A DNA stretch of 64,000 bases from Patescibacteria group bacterium (GCA_041653675.1 JBAZEY010000002.1:12315-76314), one strand, 5' to 3'. Numbered from the stretch's first letter, positions 4,965 through 48,061 are shown. Program-made: numbers and translations. The notes: generated by a model from the sequence alone, not told the origin.

Positions 4965-5300
4965 TTATTTTGTAAGCGCGTTTGTAATCCAGCCAACCAC
5001 CCACAAAATTAATGCTCCTAAAAATGCGGCAACAAAATTTTTGACATCAAAACCTTTAACGATTGACGAGACGAGCCATAACATCAAAGCGTTAATCACG
5101 AGCGTAAAAAGTCCAAGAGTCAAAATATTTACTGGCAGGGTCAATAAAATTATAAGCGGCCTAATCACGGCATTTACCAAACCCAAAACGAGCGCAGCAA
5201 GCAACGCCGAGTAAAAATTTTTCACGGAAATACCCGGCACGACGTAGGTTAAAAGCATAATCGCTACGGCATAAATTAGCCAACGAATAAGGATACCCAT
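4965..5300 (-). CDS. phage-holin-family / DUF360-type small membrane protein
   Basis: Four hydrophobic segments. The MGILIRWLIYAVAIMLLTYVVPGI... pattern is typical of the YvlD/DUF360 family. I prefer ATG at 5300 over the TTG at 5360 used in the ORF track. Confidence 0.6.
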   Translation of the reverse strand: MGILIRWLIYAVAIMLLTYVVPGISVKNFYSALLAALVLGLVNAVIRPLIILLTLPVNILTLGLFTLVINALMLWLVSSIVKGFDVKNFVAAFLGALILWVVGWITNALTK

Positions 5301-5427
5301 AAATTTTATGTTATTTATTAATTCTTCTTTAATTTTACCGCTATTGACTTTTAGCGTCAATAAATAAAAAATGAAGACAGGTGAAATTTTTTCTCAATAA
5401 GCCCGTTTTAAGATAAAAGGCAATTAT

Positions 5428-6002: not shown

Positions 6003-7871
6003 ATGTTTCAATTTTTAAATAAAAAATCAAAAAAATTCGCCAAGGCCTGGGAAGAAAAAAAACCGGCGGAACTTAAGGCTGAAGAAAAAATACTCTACGC
6101 CCTGGCGGGAAAAATCCAGAATGCGCGGCTCGCGCGGCCAGGAGAAGTTTTAATTTCTGAAATGGAAAAAAATCGCATCAGAGAAAATTTTTATCATAAA
6201 TATTTTGATCTTGTCGGCTCTGAAACACCTGCTCAAAATTTAATAAAGCAGGAAAATGGAGCTAAAGAATCAAGAAAGGAAACTTCTATGACTCTGCCTT
6301 GGAAATTTAGTAAAACGACCCTCGCCTGGGCTGGCGCAGCTGTAATCGTTTTGGCCTTAGCTCTTGGAGTTTATTTTACCCGCGGGCCTGGCGGAACAAA
6401 CGGAATTTTTAACGGAGCTCTCGCGGCGCATCTTTCCGTAGCTGACGGGCAAGTAGAAACCTGGAATGGAAGCGATTGGCAAAAAATAGAAACTGGAACT
6501 ACTATTGCCAGCCAGTCGCAAATCCGAACCGGAGAAAATAGTAAAGCAGTTTTAGAATTTGACGAAGGCAGCGCTCTTCGGCTAGACGAAAACACTCATA
6601 TAATTTTAGAAGAGATCAACAACAAAAATATTTCTGTCGCGCAAGTAGTTGGCGAAACTTATAGCCGCGTTAATAAAACTTCCGGCTTAACTTATAAAGT
6701 AAAATCTGGAGATGCGGAAACAACAGCGCTCGGCACAGCTTTTGGTGTAGCCACGGAAAAATCAAACTGGGTTAAAAAAGGTGAGAAAAAAGTTATTGTT
6801 AAGGTTGTGGAAAGCAAAGTAAAAGTAAAAATCGTAAAAAATGACGAGACATTAGAAAAAGAAGTGAGCGAAGGTGAAGAATTAATTGTTGATATGACAA
6901 AACCGATTGAAGATATTGCGAAAAAAATCCCTTTACCAAAAGAAGAAACCGCGCAAGATGGATTTTATGTCTGGAACCGAACAGAAGACAGCGAAAAATC
7001 TTATCCTCTAGGAGTTCTCTCTGACGTTACTCCGCCGGAAATAAATATCTCCGAACCTTTGGACGGAATTGAAACAGAACTCTACCGTGTTGCTGTCCGC
7101 GGCGCGACCGAAGCCGGAGCAAAAGTTTTTGTGAACGGAACTCTGACGGAAAATAAAGATGGATCCTTCGAAAAAATCATTGATCTAAAAGTTGGCGCGA
7201 ATACGGTTGAAGTGAAAGCAAAAGATGATTCTGGAAATGCTACTACTAAAAAAATTACCGTAACAAAAAAAGGCGAAGTCGTTCAAGCTTCACCGCTCTA
7301 TCTCAAAGGCTGGGCTGATTCCGAGGGCATACATCTTTCATGGTCACTTTCGGGAATTACCGCGCCAAAAGGATTTAAGCTTGTAAAATCACTCACGGCT
7401 TATCCGACTTACCCTGGCGATTCAGCGGTTTATCTAAATCCTGATACCAGAAGCTATCTCTGGCAAATCAATGATGGCAAAACTTGGCACTTCAGAGTTT
7501 GCGTCTACGAAGGCGGCGCCTGCGGTACTTACAGTAATGATTTAAAAATAGTTGCAAAATCAACTAGCACTTCTAGCAATGAAATTTACGGAACTCTTGC
7601 CCTGACCGGTTGGATAAAGACAGGAAAAATAGTCGTTCTCTCCTGGGCGCTTACCGGCAATTCTCCTTACGGATACAAAATAGTAAAATCTCTTGAACCA
7701 AATCCCGTTTATCCCGGCAATGAATATGTTTATCTTTCTTCGCCGGACATGAAAGGCAGCTATACCTGGGACGTTGGAGAGGCTGGCACCTACCATTTCC
7801 GCGTTTGCGCTTATAACGGCGGAGGTGGATGTGTCTTTTACAGCAACGACTATTCGGTAACCGTTCAATAA
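6003..7871 (+). CDS. FecR-domain membrane protein (putative anti-sigma/sensor) with two tandem C-terminal beta-rich repeats
   Basis: 5 nt after the sigma gene. One TM segment. FecR-like stretch GQVETWNGSDWQKIETG...AVLEFDEGSALRL. Two about 90-aa repeats each end in HFRVC.Y.GG.C..YSND. Confidence 0.6.
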   Translation: MFQFLNKKSKKFAKAWEEKKPAELKAEEKILYALAGKIQNARLARPGEVLISEMEKNRIRENFYHKYFDLVGSETPAQNLIKQENGAKESRKETSMTLPWKFSKTTLAWAGAAVIVLALALGVYFTRGPGGTNGIFNGALAAHLSVADGQVETWNGSDWQKIETGTTIASQSQIRTGENSKAVLEFDEGSALRLDENTHIILEEINNKNISVAQVVGETYSRVNKTSGLTYKVKSGDAETTALGTAFGVATEKSNWVKKGEKKVIVKVVESKVKVKIVKNDETLEKEVSEGEELIVDMTKPIEDIAKKIPLPKEETAQDGFYVWNRTEDSEKSYPLGVLSDVTPPEINISEPLDGIETELYRVAVRGATEAGAKVFVNGTLTENKDGSFEKIIDLKVGANTVEVKAKDDSGNATTKKITVTKKGEVVQASPLYLKGWADSEGIHLSWSLSGITAPKGFKLVKSLTAYPTYPGDSAVYLNPDTRSYLWQINDGKTWHFRVCVYEGGACGTYSNDLKIVAKSTSTSSNEIYGTLALTGWIKTGKIVVLSWALTGNSPYGYKIVKSLEPNPVYPGNEYVYLSSPDMKGSYTWDVGEAGTYHFRVCAYNGGGGCVFYSNDYSVTVQ

Positions 7872-7924
7872 TAAAAATAAAATAAAACACGGCCCTAAGT
7901 ACCCGGGGCCGTGTTTTTTAATTT

Positions 7925-38267: not shown

Positions 38268-38422
38268 CTGCTCCTCCTTCTTCTATGCAGATTTTCAAAG
38301 AACGTTGAGTCAACTTAACGCAAGTTTAACTCTGAGTCAAGCAGTAAAAATAACCCATTTCTCCAGCCCTTGATTTTTAAACCCATTTGTGCTAAATTAA
38401 ATACACAATTGTTCATCAAAAT

Positions 38423-38851
38423 ATGAACCCGCTACAAACGGAAAAATCAAACGACAAAATCTGGAGGCAACTTTCCAATCTCTGGACTTTCGCGGCCATG
38501 GGATTTTTCATGTTTGATTTTTTCACAAACGACAAATACAGCGGATACGCCGCGGCAATCTCAATTATTTACATTTCTATCCTTGGCCTTTATGCCGGCA
38601 CAAAAGAATTTGATCGCTGGCAAGATTCCCATTTTCCAAAACGCAAGGGCGAATTTTTCGTTATCCTCTGGACAGTTTTAATCTTTTTCTTTATCATTAC
38701 CGCAATAGTCTCTGGTGGAAAATATAAGATGCCTTCGGAGTTTACGGCAACCTATATCGCGCTTTTATCCATCTTCGCCTTGACACAAAGGTCAAAATTC
38801 CTGCATAATCAAAAAGAGCAAAATATTATTAATCAAAACAATAATCAATAA
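38423..38851 (+). CDS. hypothetical membrane protein
   Basis: 142 aa, 4 hydrophobic segments. TTGATT-17-TAAATT promoter-like sequence upstream. Confidence 0.55.
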
Positions 38852-38853
38852 TT

Positions 38854-39111
38854 ATGAAAAAGGACACCCATCCAGAATATTATCCAAAAGCAAAGGTGAC
38901 TTGCGCCTGCGGCAATTCTTTTACTGTTGGCTCGACCACGAAGGAAATCAAGGTTGAGTTATGTTCTGCCTGCCATCCATTTTACACTGGCAAACAAAAA
39001 CTCGTTGACTCGGCGAGACGCGTCGAGAAATTCAAAGAAAAAATGGAAAAGAAGGCAGCCATTTCCGCGACGAAAAAAGAAAAGAAGCCGAGAGCGAAAA
39101 AAACAAAGTAG
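38854..39111 (+). CDS. rpmE: 50S ribosomal protein L31
   Basis: [10 protein letters not shown]...C.CG...[12 protein letters not shown]. Confidence 0.9.
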
Positions 39112-39187
39112 TTATTCCAATCATAAAAAACATGGTGACATTTTTGTTATCATGTTTTTATGTTAGAATAAACTAATAAATTTAATT

Positions 39188-40225
39188 ATGATTCCGGAAA
39201 TCATTAAAGCTGAAGAAAAATTCAAGGAACTTGAGGCCGAGCTCGCTCGCCCCGAGGTGGTTTCTGATCGGGAAAAGTTAAAAAAAGTTTCCCAAGAATA
39301 TAGTGATTTGAAAGAAGTAATGGAAAAAATAAATAAATTCCACGCGCTGGAAAAAGCCGCGGTTGAAACGGAAGTTATCGCCAAACAAGATGTTCCCGAA
39401 ATGGCCGCGATTGCTAAAGAAGAATTGGAAAAAATTCGGCAAGAAAGATCAGTGCTCGAAGCGGAAATCAAAGAAGAGCTGACGCCGAAAGATCCGCTGG
39501 ACAAAAGAAATATTATTGTGGAAATCCGCGCCGGTGCCGGCGGCGACGAAGCCGCGCTTTTTGCCGCGCAACTTTTCCGAATGTATTCCAGATTTGCTGA
39601 ACGAAAAGGTTGGCAGGCAAGGTTAATTTCCGCCAACCGCACCGATCTTGGCGGGTTTAAAGAAATTATTTTTTCAGTTATTGGCAAAGGCGCGTGGGGA
39701 AATTTAAAATTTGAAAGCGGTGTGCATCGCGTCCAGCGCGTTCCGGATACGGAAAAAAGCGGCCGCGTCCATACCTCCACCGCTTCCGTCGCCGTCCTTC
39801 CCGAAACTGAAGAAATTGATATTAAAATTGAACCAAAAGATTTGCGCATTGATACCTTTTTATCCGGCGGCCACGGCGGGCAGAGCGTGCAAACGACATA
39901 TTCCGCGGTGCGCATTACTCATATTCCGTCAGGCCTTGTTGTCGCCTGCCAAGACGAACGCTCCCAGCAGCAAAACCGCGAAAAAGCCATGCAGGTTTTG
40001 CGTTCCCGCCTTTTTGTAATGGAGCAAGAAAAACGCCAGGCGGCGGAAGTCGCGGCGCGGCGTTCACAGATTGGTTCGGCAATGCGCGCGGAAAAAATCA
40101 GAACATACAATTTTCCTCAAGACCGCGTTTCCGACCATCGCGTCAAAGAAAGCTGGCACAATATTAATAACGTAATGGACGGTGAGCTAGATCAAATTAT
40201 TGAAGTACTAAAAAAGGAAATATAA
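39188..40225 (+). CDS. prfA: peptide chain release factor 1
   Basis: GGQ motif ([12 protein letters not shown]), RVQRVP.TE..GR.HTS segment. Followed by prmC, the canonical partner. Confidence 0.9.
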
Positions 40226-40241
40226 AAAATTAAAAAATAAT

Positions 40242-40264
40242 CCGGCCGCAAGGCCGGTTTTTTG
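40242..40264 (+). terminator. prfA intrinsic terminator
   Basis: CCGGCCGCAAGGCCGG followed by a T-run. Confidence 0.7.
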
Positions 40265-40280
40265 ATATAAATTTTGACAT

Positions 40281-40593
40281 AAAAAAAGAGTCGGTCGAAC
40301 GAGGTGTTCGACCGACGGGCACAACGCGAAACGTAGCGGTGTGCAAAGAAGGGTGACCTCCGTACCCGCTAAAAGCGGATTTGGAGGATCGAAAACGCGG
40401 GGGAGATTTCAGCCCACCTGCATAACAGGCAAGCCGGGTTCCTGCTGGCCACCCCTGGGTCCTTCCTCCACGAGATCATCCGCGCTTCAACGCGCGGCTT
40501 CCACTCGAGGACTCCGGATTTGGGATGAGAAAAAATTACCCACGACGCCAGTGCGCTGCCGGCATCAACCGAACAGGACTCCCCTTTACCCTG
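40281..40593 (-). ncRNA. unclassified structured GC-rich RNA (about 310 nt) with its own promoter and terminator
   Basis: Promoter: TTGACA (40628-40623), 17-nt spacer, TAAAGT (40605-40600). Terminator: hairpin GTCGGTCGAAC/GTTCGACCGAC (40290-40316) plus U7. A 5'/3' closing helix pairs GUGCA..AAGGGG with CCCUU..UGCAC. Several internal GC hairpins, for example CCGCGC-GUUGAA-GCGCGG. Confidence 0.5.
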
Positions 40594-40620
40594 CACTGCA
40601 CTTTAACATAATTATCAAAA

Positions 40621-40643
40621 TTTGTCAAGAGTCTCTTGACAAA
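40621..40643. promoter_or_regulatory. perfect 23-bp palindrome carrying two divergent TTGACA -35 boxes
   Basis: TTTGTCAAGAG-T-CTCTTGACAAA. The left -35 serves the ncRNA. The right -35 (40636-40641), with a 17-nt spacer and TATTAT (40659-40664), serves the 71-aa ORF transcript. Confidence 0.6.
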
Positions 40644-40788
40644 TTCATCTTTTTGTAATATTATAAAAACATCAAAACAGGGTGGCCTTGTGTTCTTGGC
40701 GCGTGCCAGAAACGCAAGGAAGGTGGCCCTAAGCCTCGGCCTGATGGACAGGACGAGTTGATAATAGGGAAGGTAGTGGAGGACAGAG

Positions 40789-41004
40789 ATGTCGAGTAGT
40801 GTTTTCTGGGACGACGGTACAAGGCTCTCAGCGGACGGTGTCCCCATCATCCCCGATGGTGCGGGACCGCGCGAGATTTCACAGCGCCGCAGGACGAGCA
40901 GACAGCTCGACGACTTCTTCCCCGACTGGGAGGAGGAACACCGCCGGAACGAGGAAGCCAGGCGGCGCGACCGCGACCGCCGTCGTGATGGCGTCCGCTG
41001 CTAA
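40789..41004 (+). CDS. hypothetical Arg-rich small protein (71 aa), GC-rich
   Basis: GGAGGACAGAG before the ATG. About 118-nt 5' UTR from the TATTAT promoter. C-terminus RRNEEARRRDRDRRRDGVRC. Confidence 0.4.
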   Translation: MSSSVFWDDGTRLSADGVPIIPDGAGPREISQRRRTSRQLDDFFPDWEEEHRRNEEARRRDRDRRRDGVRC

Positions 41005-41162
41005 CACCAGCCCCAGCCCACCCACCAACAACGTGAGAACGCGCGAGCAATCGCTCGTCCTCCGTCCGAATTTACGCCGCCCCTCCCGGACTCGGCGTAA
41101 GAGCCCGCGTAGCGGATCGCAGGGGACATGAGTCCCGCCTCCCTCCCCGCTGCCGGGCGACC

Positions 41163-41220
41163 AGCCCGTGGATTGTTTTGGAGACCTCCCCTCCTCCGAA
41201 CAATCCACGGGCTCTTTTTT
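41163..41220 (+). terminator. intrinsic terminator closing the GC-rich locus
   Basis: AGCCCGTGGATTGTT...AACAATCCACGGGCT (15-bp stem) followed by CTTTTTT. Confidence 0.7.
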
Positions 41221-41380
41221 ATTATCAAGCGAGTGAGAGAAATGAACTTATTCATTTCCGAGCGAGCGCAGATAACACGGAGTATTATCAAGCGAGTGAG
41301 AGAAATGAACTTATTCATTTCCGAGCGCCCGGCCTCGCCGAAGACGGCAAGTCGAGGCGGGAGCGCAGATAACGCGCAGT
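41221..41380 (+). repeat. 63-bp tandem direct repeat (2 copies; copy 2 carries a 34-bp GC-rich hairpin insertion)
   Basis: 41221-41283 repeats at 41284-41327 plus 41362-41380. Each unit contains the palindrome GAAATGAA-CTTA-TTCATTTC. Confidence 0.85.
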
Positions 41381-41396
41381 ATGTTATAATGATCCT

Positions 41397-42257
41397 ATGA
41401 CTATCCAAAAATATTTAATTTGGGCGATAAAAACTTTACAAAAAAATAAAATCGTCTCCCCAGCTCTCGATGCCGAGGTTCTTTTATCTTTTGTTATAAA
41501 AAAACCAAAAGAATTTTTATACGCGCATTCTGAAAAAAAATTAACTGCGGTACAAATTTCAAAGTTTAAAAAACTCATTATCTGCCGAGCAAAGCACGAG
41601 CCGGTCGCCTATATTATTAGCCACAAATATTTTTACGGCTTGGATTTTTTTGTAAATAAAAATGTTTTGATCCCCCGCCCGGAAACGGAAATATTAGTTG
41701 AAACCACGATAGAGAAAAAACCAACCACGATTATTGACGTCGGAACGGGCAGTGGCGCCATTGCCGTAACGCTTGCACATAATTTACCCAATGCAAAAAT
41801 TTTCGCCACAGAAATCTCTTCGGCCGCTGCCAAAGTAGCGCAAAAAAATGCACGACATCACAAAACGAAAATTACATTTTTGCACGGCAATTTATTGCAA
41901 CCGTTTTCAAATCTAAAATCAAATATCACAAATCTTAAATCTTTGACGATAGCTGCCAATCTCCCCTATCTCACCACAAAACAATGGCAAAAATCCCAGC
42001 TAGAAATAAAAAAATACGAACCGCGGACGGCACTCGACGGCGGCGCGGACGGTTTAAAATATTATCGCGAACTTTTACAACAAATAGAATTGCTAATCAC
42101 TAGCCACAAATTATCCATTACTTCCGTTTTAGAAATTGATCCTTCCCAAAAAAAATCTATTGCGAAATTAATCAAACGCCGTTTTCCCTCCGCGAAAATA
42201 GAAATAAAAAAAGACCTCGCCGGCCGAGATCGAATCGTTATTTTTAAAATAAATTAA
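41397..42257 (+). CDS. prmC: release-factor glutamine N5-methyltransferase (PrmC/HemK)
   Basis: SAM motif IIDVGTGSGAIAV. Catalytic motif is N-L-P-Y (variant of NPPY). Adjacent to prfA. Confidence 0.8.
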   Translation: MTIQKYLIWAIKTLQKNKIVSPALDAEVLLSFVIKKPKEFLYAHSEKKLTAVQISKFKKLIICRAKHEPVAYIISHKYFYGLDFFVNKNVLIPRPETEILVETTIEKKPTTIIDVGTGSGAIAVTLAHNLPNAKIFATEISSAAAKVAQKNARHHKTKITFLHGNLLQPFSNLKSNITNLKSLTIAANLPYLTTKQWQKSQLEIKKYEPRTALDGGADGLKYYRELLQQIELLITSHKLSITSVLEIDPSQKKSIAKLIKRRFPSAKIEIKKDLAGRDRIVIFKIN

Positions 42258-47885: not shown

Positions 47886-47914
47886 ATAATAGCCCACTTT
47901 TGCCATTTTGTCAA
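47886..47914 (-). promoter_or_regulatory. putative promoter of cassette H (about 127-nt 5' UTR)
   Basis: Minus strand: TTGACA (47914-47909), 17-nt spacer, TATTAT (47891-47886). Confidence 0.5.
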
Positions 47915-47928
47915 CCTCTCTCCCCCTT

Positions 47929-48061
47929 GTCCCGGTTAGAGGTCCTCGGCATAATTTTTTTAGAAAAAAAATTATGCTCAGTTTTAATAAGCATAGAAGT
48001 CGCCAAATCTCCCACCCTGAAAACCACCTAAAATAAAGACAAGACAGACCTCTAACGGGAC
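47929..48061 (+). repeat. 133-bp element closed by 15-16 nt inverted repeats, with a nested AT-rich palindrome
   Basis: GTCCCGGTTAGAGGTC (47929-47944) pairs with GACCTCTAACGGGAC (48047-48061). Nested palindrome GCATAATTTTTTT-AG-AAAAAAATTATGC at 47949-47977. Confidence 0.7.

Follow-up and report, generated by a model that had tools for sequence, protein, structure and literature searches.

The DNA analysed here, called the window below, is a stretch of 64 kb from an uncultured groundwater member of Candidatus Falkowbacteria (Patescibacteria/CPR), whose prfA shares 79-91% identity with that of six MAG species representatives. The set of proteins encoded in the window was found in ERZ27247358 and SRR6484325. 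Between prfA and prmC it carries an island (40290-41215) of 60-67% GC, set in surrounding sequence of about 40% GC, and a palindrome lies inside this island. The genes flanking the island encode the proteins L31, RF1, PrmC, a DUF3048 protein, L25 and FtsW; still farther upstream come genes for an RNHCP protein and a radical-SAM enzyme. No transcription-factor gene is evident among the genes that flank the island. Base composition is also uneven elsewhere: the segment 34950-38270 (radical-SAM/SPASM, RNHCP and methyltransferase genes) has 50-60% GC, and the housekeeping genes at 38300-40200 have 32-45%. The features of the island and its borders are as follows.

39188-40225: prfA
40242-40257: terminator of prfA
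40274-40279, + strand: a second TTGACA, following closely on the prfA terminator at the distal end of the RNA unit
40282-40592, - strand: stand-alone structured RNA (the left RNA), about 311 nt, about 60% GC; from folding and covariation in 7 sequences
40600-40608, - strand: candidate leftward extended -10, TGtTAAAGT, 17 nt from its -35 (hexamer TAAAGT, 40605 to 40600)
40619-40645, no strand: 27-bp palindrome made of two back-to-back -35 hexamers, A/T-rich flanks and the 7-nt centre GAGTCTC
40623-40628, - strand: candidate leftward -35, TTGACA; from the consensus scan, kept in 8 of 8 RNA-bearing loci
40636-40641, + strand: candidate rightward -35, TTGACA; from the consensus scan, kept as TTGACAAATT[A/C]ATC in most of 15 leader-bearing loci
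40659-40664, + strand: candidate rightward -10, TATTAT, 17 nt from its -35
40670-40788, + strand: structured 5' leader; from an alignment of 15 loci
40789-41004, + strand: type A ORF, 71 aa, Arg/Asp/Glu-rich, with a GGAGG Shine-Dalgarno sequence 6 nt upstream
41005-41220, + strand: structured 3' region, ACGUGAGAG-hairpin-CUCUCCGU and further elements, conserved
41397-42257: prmC

Structured RNAs, small ORFs and variable content of the island

For comparison we used the syntenic loci of 80 genomes, found via prfA, together with 12 genuine metagenome loci found via a leader pattern; the palindrome was absent from both search patterns. The locus L008 comes from the complete genome OZ246416.1. The metagenome scan with the leader pattern gave 24 loci in all, the other 12 of which were discarded as an unrelated, apparently eukaryotic repeat (L085, L088-L090, L092, L094, L097, L098, L101 and L104-L106; records MKWU01... 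and JGIcombinedJ30088).

The left RNA is genuinely structured and has no family in Rfam 15. It folds far better than shuffled sequence (z = -5.0), and the alignment of seven homologues, which are 311, 320, 326, 333, 334, 335 and 361 nt long, contains 94 consensus pairs, 19 of them with compensatory double changes. Outside the window the homologues are situated at L005:5266-5585, L008:5133-5458, L095:9822-10154, L086:2000-2334, L108:596-956 and L103:5439-5772, and a reduced variant is present in L009 at about 5146-5395. A search of 852 kb of loci with an nhmmer profile found the RNA only at this position, together with the L009 variant. In every locus with flanking sequence it is immediately downstream of prfA and convergent with it (the short L108 contig lacks the flank). 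Invariant in this RNA are the motifs GGGGAGUCC, the GCAGCGCAC loop, CAGGAACCCGG and CUGAAAUCUCCCC, as well as a hairpin in which GAUCCUCCAA is paired with AAGGAGGUC, that is, an anti-Shine-Dalgarno sequence with a perfect Shine-Dalgarno sequence; its end is an intrinsic terminator with the stem 40316-40290 and a U-run. At the gathering threshold Rfam 15 gave nothing in the whole window nor in L005, L008, L009 and L103, and at E<=10 the 1.3-kb region and the L009 variant gave weak matches far below the gathering scores of the families. Neither tRNA nor tmRNA genes were found in the window, and a metagenome scan with a pattern from the 3' end of the left RNA gave no match.

Several known identities of the left RNA were considered and rejected. 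The motifs GGGGAGUCC and ACAGGAACCCGGUU recall CR-I and CR-V of RNase P; however, no RNase P match was obtained even at E<=10, the CR-I-like motif, situated 8 nt from the 5' end, lacks a preceding P1-P3, and the helices backed by covariation pair the CR-I-like and CR-V-like segments otherwise. The possibilities of tmRNA, SRP RNA and 6S RNA were ruled out on sequence and topology. A coding function is contradicted by the variable length of the homologues (311-361 nt), by a minus-strand ORF that is not kept in L008 and by the 19 covarying pairs.

On the other side of the palindrome stands a rightward cassette of leader, ORF and 3' RNA. The leader has three invariant elements, GGTGGCC (RNA GGUGGCC), GGAAGGTGGCCCTA (GGAAGGUGGCCCUA) and TAGGGAAGG (UAGGGAAGG), and between them two variable hairpins, both covarying in the 15 sequences; no Rfam match was found for it. 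The ORF of the window belongs to a family, type A, of 64-71 aa with the pattern ..VF..DGT.LS.DG..IIPDG...RRR...PD.EEE.R...ARR, which is conserved at the protein level in the window, L005, L006, L086/95, L087, L096, L099 and L100 and is tiny, with only 4 clusters in 5.8 billion proteins. In L007, L008, L009, L107 and L108 the same leader is followed by an unrelated ORF, type B, of 86-122 aa, Cys-rich and zinc-ribbon-like, and the same leader and the same 3' RNA thus frame two unrelated ORF families. The 3' element begins 2-22 nt past the stop codon (in L009 it overlaps the end of the ORF), its region ends in an intrinsic terminator (stem 41163-41213 and a T-run), and it matches no Rfam 15 family. 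A phage or mobile-element origin was also considered and rejected: there were zero matches for the leader or the left RNA in a viral contig collection, and the small ORFs have no Pfam, PHROGs or PDB match.

What lies between prfA and prmC is organised in modules and varies among close relatives. Between the cassette and prmC the relatives carry an extra GC-rich gene of about 180-210 aa (L005 6204-6806; L008 6189-6824; L007 about 6825-7300+; L009 about 7351-7895; L103 downstream of the cassette), which the window does not have; this gene comes with a separate TTGACAAATT promoter and with a leader that is conserved (AAGGTGCGGATAGAAAGGAC...hairpin), and it gave no Pfam or PHROGs match. In its place the window carries two copies of a 45-nt unit, TATTATCAAGCGAGTGAGAGAAATGAACTTATTCATTTCCGAGCG, at 41220-41264 and 41283-41327, 63 nt apart, with an internal hairpin GAAATGAA/TTCATTTC. 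Relatives of this unit stand inverted in L009 (5092-5155), directly after the terminator of the left RNA, and also after a terminator in L096 and L100; the unit seems to travel with terminators. At loci where prs follows prfA (L007 5055-5095; L010 5045-5075; L103 5800-5835) the TTGACA of prs is inside a terminator-like hairpin, AAAAAGAttCTGT-TTG-ACAGggTCTTTTTT, followed by a T-run, and one sequence may serve as both prfA terminator and prs -35. The prs gene is GC-rich in L007, L009 and L103 and AT-rich in L010.

Candidate divergent promoters and the palindrome between them

Two candidate promoters are predicted between the left RNA and the leader. The rightward one, TTGACA-17 nt-TATTAT, has 11 of 12 consensus matches, and the leftward one, TTGACA-17 nt-TAAAGT, has 10 of 12, with TGt ahead of the latter hexamer as an extended -10. 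Relatives keep the hexamers and spacer lengths (16-17 nt), and the spacer sequences and downstream genes vary. The leftward homologues read TTGACA, 16-17 nt and then TGnTA[A/G/T]A[G/T]T in all of the RNA-bearing loci, which total just 8, several of them closely related. The rightward layout is present in the 15 leader-bearing loci, its -35 form being retained with or without the left half and its -10 being TAT[T/C][A/C/T]T at 17 nt in most of them; L007 has a weak -10 (TACCCT). The sequence-only reading had placed two TTGACA -35 boxes here, each 17 nt from a -10, and the scan bears this out. Its proposal of divergent promoters also appears well founded, as the -35, the -10 and the spacings of both are kept in relatives, and in elements, spacing (16-18 nt) and conservation both look like housekeeping sigma-70 promoters.

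From consensus and conservation, the leftward promoter would drive the structured RNA and the rightward one the leader-ORF-3' RNA cassette. The conserved RNA sequence starts at 40592 and the conserved leader near 40670, boundaries that are consistent, indirectly, with predicted starts about 7 nt past each -10. Because each promoter has its own -10 box, separate from the other (40600-40605 and 40659-40664), about 78 bp would separate the two predicted starts. To our knowledge, no promoter of Patescibacteria has been mapped experimentally, and the site supplies well-supported candidates of the form TTGACAAA(TT), 16-17 nt, (TGn)TAnnnT. The form TTGACAAA(TT) is the usual one in this lineage: it is found at unrelated promoters of the window (3317, 8906, 9515, 35767, 47914 and 63982), and the promoter of the extra gene in relatives, TTGACAAATTTTATTTTTTAAACT, has the same form. 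Among 41 TTGACA sites with a good -10, not all of them independent since many are homologous to one another, the hexamer is followed by A at +1 in 29 and by A at +2 in 35.

The two -35 hexamers are placed back to back within a perfect inverted repeat. The 23-bp palindrome described earlier, TTTGTCAAGAG-T-CTCTTGACAAA at 40621-40643, is present exactly as claimed when the sequence is read directly, and the inverted-repeat search extended it by two more perfectly paired bases on each side, to 27 bp at 40619-40645. The whole reads AATTTGTCAAGAG-T-CTCTTGACAAATT, with 13-nt arms on either side of a central T at 40632 (13+1+13). Such a structure is rare: of perfect palindromes whose arms reach 13 nt or more and whose loop does not exceed 4 nt, the 64-kb window has only two, an arm length of 13 was attained in just one of 100 first-order Markov simulations, and TGTCAA-N0-12-TTGACA was observed once in the window against 0.05 expected. 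The palindrome is therefore not random, yet abutting promoters of the TTGACAAA type automatically give 8-10 symmetric bp per arm. Allowing up to 3 mismatches, no second copy of the 21-mer was found in the window. The one further perfect palindrome whose arms are 13 nt long, at 47949-47977 (GCATAATTTTTTTAGAAAAAAAATTATGC), is based on A/T runs and is near the promoter-like site at 47914 (- strand).

The joint in related loci

Six loci carry both the left RNA and the leader cassette, and the joints between the two -35 hexamers in these loci are the following.

Window: TTTGTCAA-GAGTCTC-TTGACAAATT, gap 7 nt
L108: centre GGATCTCC, gap 8 nt
L005: centre GGGGG, gap 5 nt
L095: centre GGGGG, gap 5 nt
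L086: centre GAGGG, gap 5 nt
L008: centre GGGG, gap 4 nt

A search for the palindrome in related genomes had been proposed from the sequence as a check, and its outcome is divided: the TTGACA and AA(A)TT arms are retained in the six joints, and the centre, the distance between the half-sites and the symmetry are not. The centre is non-palindromic (GGGG, GGGGG or GAGGG) in four of the six, and L086 and L095, which are near-identical in sequence, have different centres. Palindromic centres are found in the window (GAG.CTC) and its close relative L108 (GGA..TCC), and these differ from each other in both sequence and length.

The two halves of the joint also occur apart. The right half, cTTGACAAATT[A/C]A with its -10, is present without the left half or the RNA in L006/L091, L087, L093, L096/L109, L100 and L099/L111, all of which carry the ORF family, and in L107; variants are TTGACAATTTCATC in L102/L103 and TTGACAAACCC in L007. 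In at least 8 distinct lineages the right promoter with TTGACAAATT is retained without the left RNA, and in RNA-less loci, where it reads cTTGACAAATT[A/C]ATC...TAATATT[A/C]T, its -35 comes directly after the prfA terminator. The closest relatives of the window's own ORF, those of L096 and L100, are both RNA-less. The left RNA adjoins prs instead in L103 and L009, where the left promoter, TTGACAAA(A)TTTT, 17 nt and TGaTATAGT or TGaTATATT, stands back to back with the prs promoter; this joint is TTTTGTCAAGACCTTGTTTGACAGGGTC, and its prs side, TTGACAGGGTC or TTGACAGGATC, has no AAATT arm. Whichever promoter is the partner, the distance from -35 to -35 is always 4-8 nt. Within the 852 kb of loci the back-to-back motif was found only at left-RNA promoters, plus once in L010. 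The newly found contigs with ORF homologues were all without the RNA and hence gave no further examples of the palindrome.

It had also been suggested that the RNA and the small protein form one functional or regulatory module. This is not borne out, as each occurs without the other, and they can form no obligate module because two unrelated ORF families swap behind the conserved leader.

Interpretation of the palindrome and comparison with known systems

From all these results the palindrome is probably the joint of two independent near-consensus promoters of the sigma-70/SigA type placed back to back, its symmetry being a by-product. The units on either side of it are genuine genes, as the covariation in the RNA and in the leader and the conservation of the ORF protein indicate. 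Promoters of this lineage read TTGACAAA(TT), and an abutting pair of them therefore gives an inverted repeat of 8-10 bp per arm; promoter consensus accounts for 10 of the 13 arm bases. The last 3 bp of the arm (GAG/CTC) are specific to the window genome and its close relative L108, where they are GGA/TCC; chance, or a template switch that corrected a quasi-palindrome, is the best explanation for them, and selection for protein binding is not. Each half would be recognised separately by RNA polymerase. The A/T-rich spacer of each promoter would occupy the UP-element position of the other, divergent transcription would feed negative supercoils into the shared region, and through these spacers and the shared supercoiling the two promoters could influence each other, by competition or by stimulation. 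Specific control of the right transcript more plausibly resides in the conserved leader RNA. The sequence, the pattern of its conservation, the independence of the two halves and the RNA structure with its covariation are shown; we infer the start sites, how strong the promoters are, whether they are coupled and how the central 3 bp arose. Two observations count against the by-product explanation: the palindromic centres of the window and L108 differ in sequence and length, and could hint at lineage-specific selection for symmetry, and the apposition of the -35 boxes at 4-8 nt is tighter than compactness alone strictly requires.

The sequence-only reading regarded the site as a symmetric operator for one dimeric repressor. 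Such a repressor, of the helix-turn-helix type, would cover both -35 boxes and shut both transcripts together. We consider such an operator very unlikely, even though two symmetric half-sites are certainly there, with perfect 13-bp arms that overlap both -35 hexamers, chance seldom yields a palindrome this long, and the joint of L108 is likewise almost perfectly palindromic, around another centre. Gaps of 4, 5, 5, 5, 7 and 8 nt and non-palindromic centres, with a run of G in four of the six joints, are at odds with the fixed spacing and conserved symmetry of an operator, since a 4-bp variation in spacing among orthologous sites rotates the half-sites by about 140 degrees. Nor are the half-sites kept or lost together; they behave as independent sites, each retained when the other is absent or replaced, the right one alone in at least 8 RNA-less lineages and the left one with another partner in L009 and L103. 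Promoter consensus accounts for the conserved bases of the arms, the 64-kb window contains no second site, and the genes flanking the island include no evident transcription-factor gene. A flexible or monomer-binding regulatory factor may act at the site, and is conceivable because the regulators of uncultured Patescibacteria are essentially unknown.

The inverted repeat could also work as a nucleic-acid hairpin, either as a weak terminator or insulator against antisense read-through from the RNA gene into the right cassette, or as a cruciform that responds to supercoiling. The scan, a loose one, indeed lists it as terminator-like on the + strand, with 12 pairs and then CATCTTTTTG; its RNA energy is -12.3 to -13.4 kcal/mol in the window and still -9.4 to -9.5 kcal/mol in the two loci that retain a stem of 10 bp, L005 and L008, and the prfA terminator hairpin itself holds TTGACA in L007 and L010. 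However, A and T dominate the stem, in which just 3 pairs are G-C, the T-run begins 3 nt off the stem, prfA has its own strong terminator at 40242-40257 and the terminator hairpin of the RNA also lies between, so that a further one would be redundant, the structure is absent in all RNA-less loci and where prs is the partner, and the stem consists wholly of promoter bases, so that no separate explanation is needed; such a function is highly improbable. Another explanation, which we hold to be unlikely but somewhat less remote than the foregoing, is that mobile promoter-to-terminator cassettes were joined here by recombination, the TTGACAAATT modules serving as crossover points at which the RNA unit, the leader-ORF unit, prs and the extra gene are acquired, lost or exchanged. 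The modular island that differs between close relatives speaks for it, as does the swap of the ORF between two unrelated families inside a conserved leader and 3' RNA. The RNA unit of the window is, moreover, bracketed by TTGACA at 40274 and 40636, and the RNA-less loci L006, L096/L109 and L100 read ...tataaaNNTTGACAaattcatc, the exact product of a deletion between the two TTGACA copies; the copy at 40274 may have been left behind by gain or loss of the RNA unit, or may serve as a substrate for it. On the other hand, no locus except the window has the exact outer TTGACA (L005 shows a degenerate TTGATA, and L008, L095 and L103 lack any copy), neither a recombinase nor terminal inverted repeats nor a consistent target duplication was seen, and the leader and RNA have no match in the viral contig collection. 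The idea that the two TTGACA copies are the target-site duplication of a mobile RNA gene was likewise weakened by the other RNA-bearing loci, which are without the outer copy. A recombination joint would explain the abutment of the promoters and not the role of the palindrome, and it is compatible with symmetry as a by-product.

As a regulatory element the palindrome is thus ordinary and minor, a consequence of a known promoter arrangement. The site shows that a perfect inverted repeat can come from promoter consensus alone and that symmetry in itself is no proof of an operator. The practical worth of the palindrome is that of a signpost: it points to a pair of covarying RNA elements that lack annotation and to a small-protein family that is very rare. 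The RNA family, which is undescribed, merits follow-up, as do the leader/3' RNA cassette with its swappable ORFs and the strikingly modular prfA-prmC island. As a tentative suggestion, which we put forward as possible rather than probable, the incidental palindrome marks a hotspot of Falkowbacteria where self-contained GC-rich promoter-to-terminator cassettes, including two RNA elements absent from Rfam 15, come, go and are swapped between prfA and prmC, and where the tight apposition of the -35 boxes might couple the RNA to its neighbour via polymerase competition or supercoiling.

Palindromic operators are known from divergent regions, for example tetO between tetR and tetA of Tn10 and the BirA operator between bioA and bioBFCD; these operators are conserved as a unit, have a fixed spacing of half-sites, and their cognate regulator is encoded nearby. 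The present site resembles them as a symmetric sequence between divergent genes that overlaps promoter elements, but differs from them in its variable spacing and centre, its separable half-sites and the lack of an evident regulator among the flanking genes. Quasi-palindrome template-switch mutagenesis is a known mutational route by which imperfect inverted repeats are perfected. Like its substrates, the joint offers a 10-bp inverted repeat with a short spacer, and the product would be an extended palindrome without mismatches, which the window shows and L108 comes close to; we offer template switching only as a process that may have been the neutral origin of the extra 3 bp per arm.

The closest resemblance is to classical back-to-back divergent sigma-70 promoters, whose organisation was reportedly reviewed by Beck and Warren in Microbiol Rev in 1988: two complete promoters on opposite strands, with upstream regions abutting and cores not overlapping, and start sites several tens of bp apart (about 78 bp here, as predicted). 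Unlike in the classical cases, the -35 hexamers are here only 4-8 nt apart and both are perfect TTGACA with identical flanks, and therefore a perfect palindrome results; the host, moreover, is an uncultured Patescibacterium, for which no promoter is known to have been mapped. Bidirectional promoters (Warman et al. 2021), as described in PMC12825309, have a symmetric -10 that is shared by both directions, with starts typically 18 bp and also 10 or 23 bp apart. The present site is of another kind, as it is the -35 elements that are symmetric, the two promoters have separate -10 boxes, and the predicted starts lie well outside the 10-23 bp around a single -10. What the two arrangements have in common is that divergent transcription is tied to the symmetry of the sequence and that two polymerases may compete.
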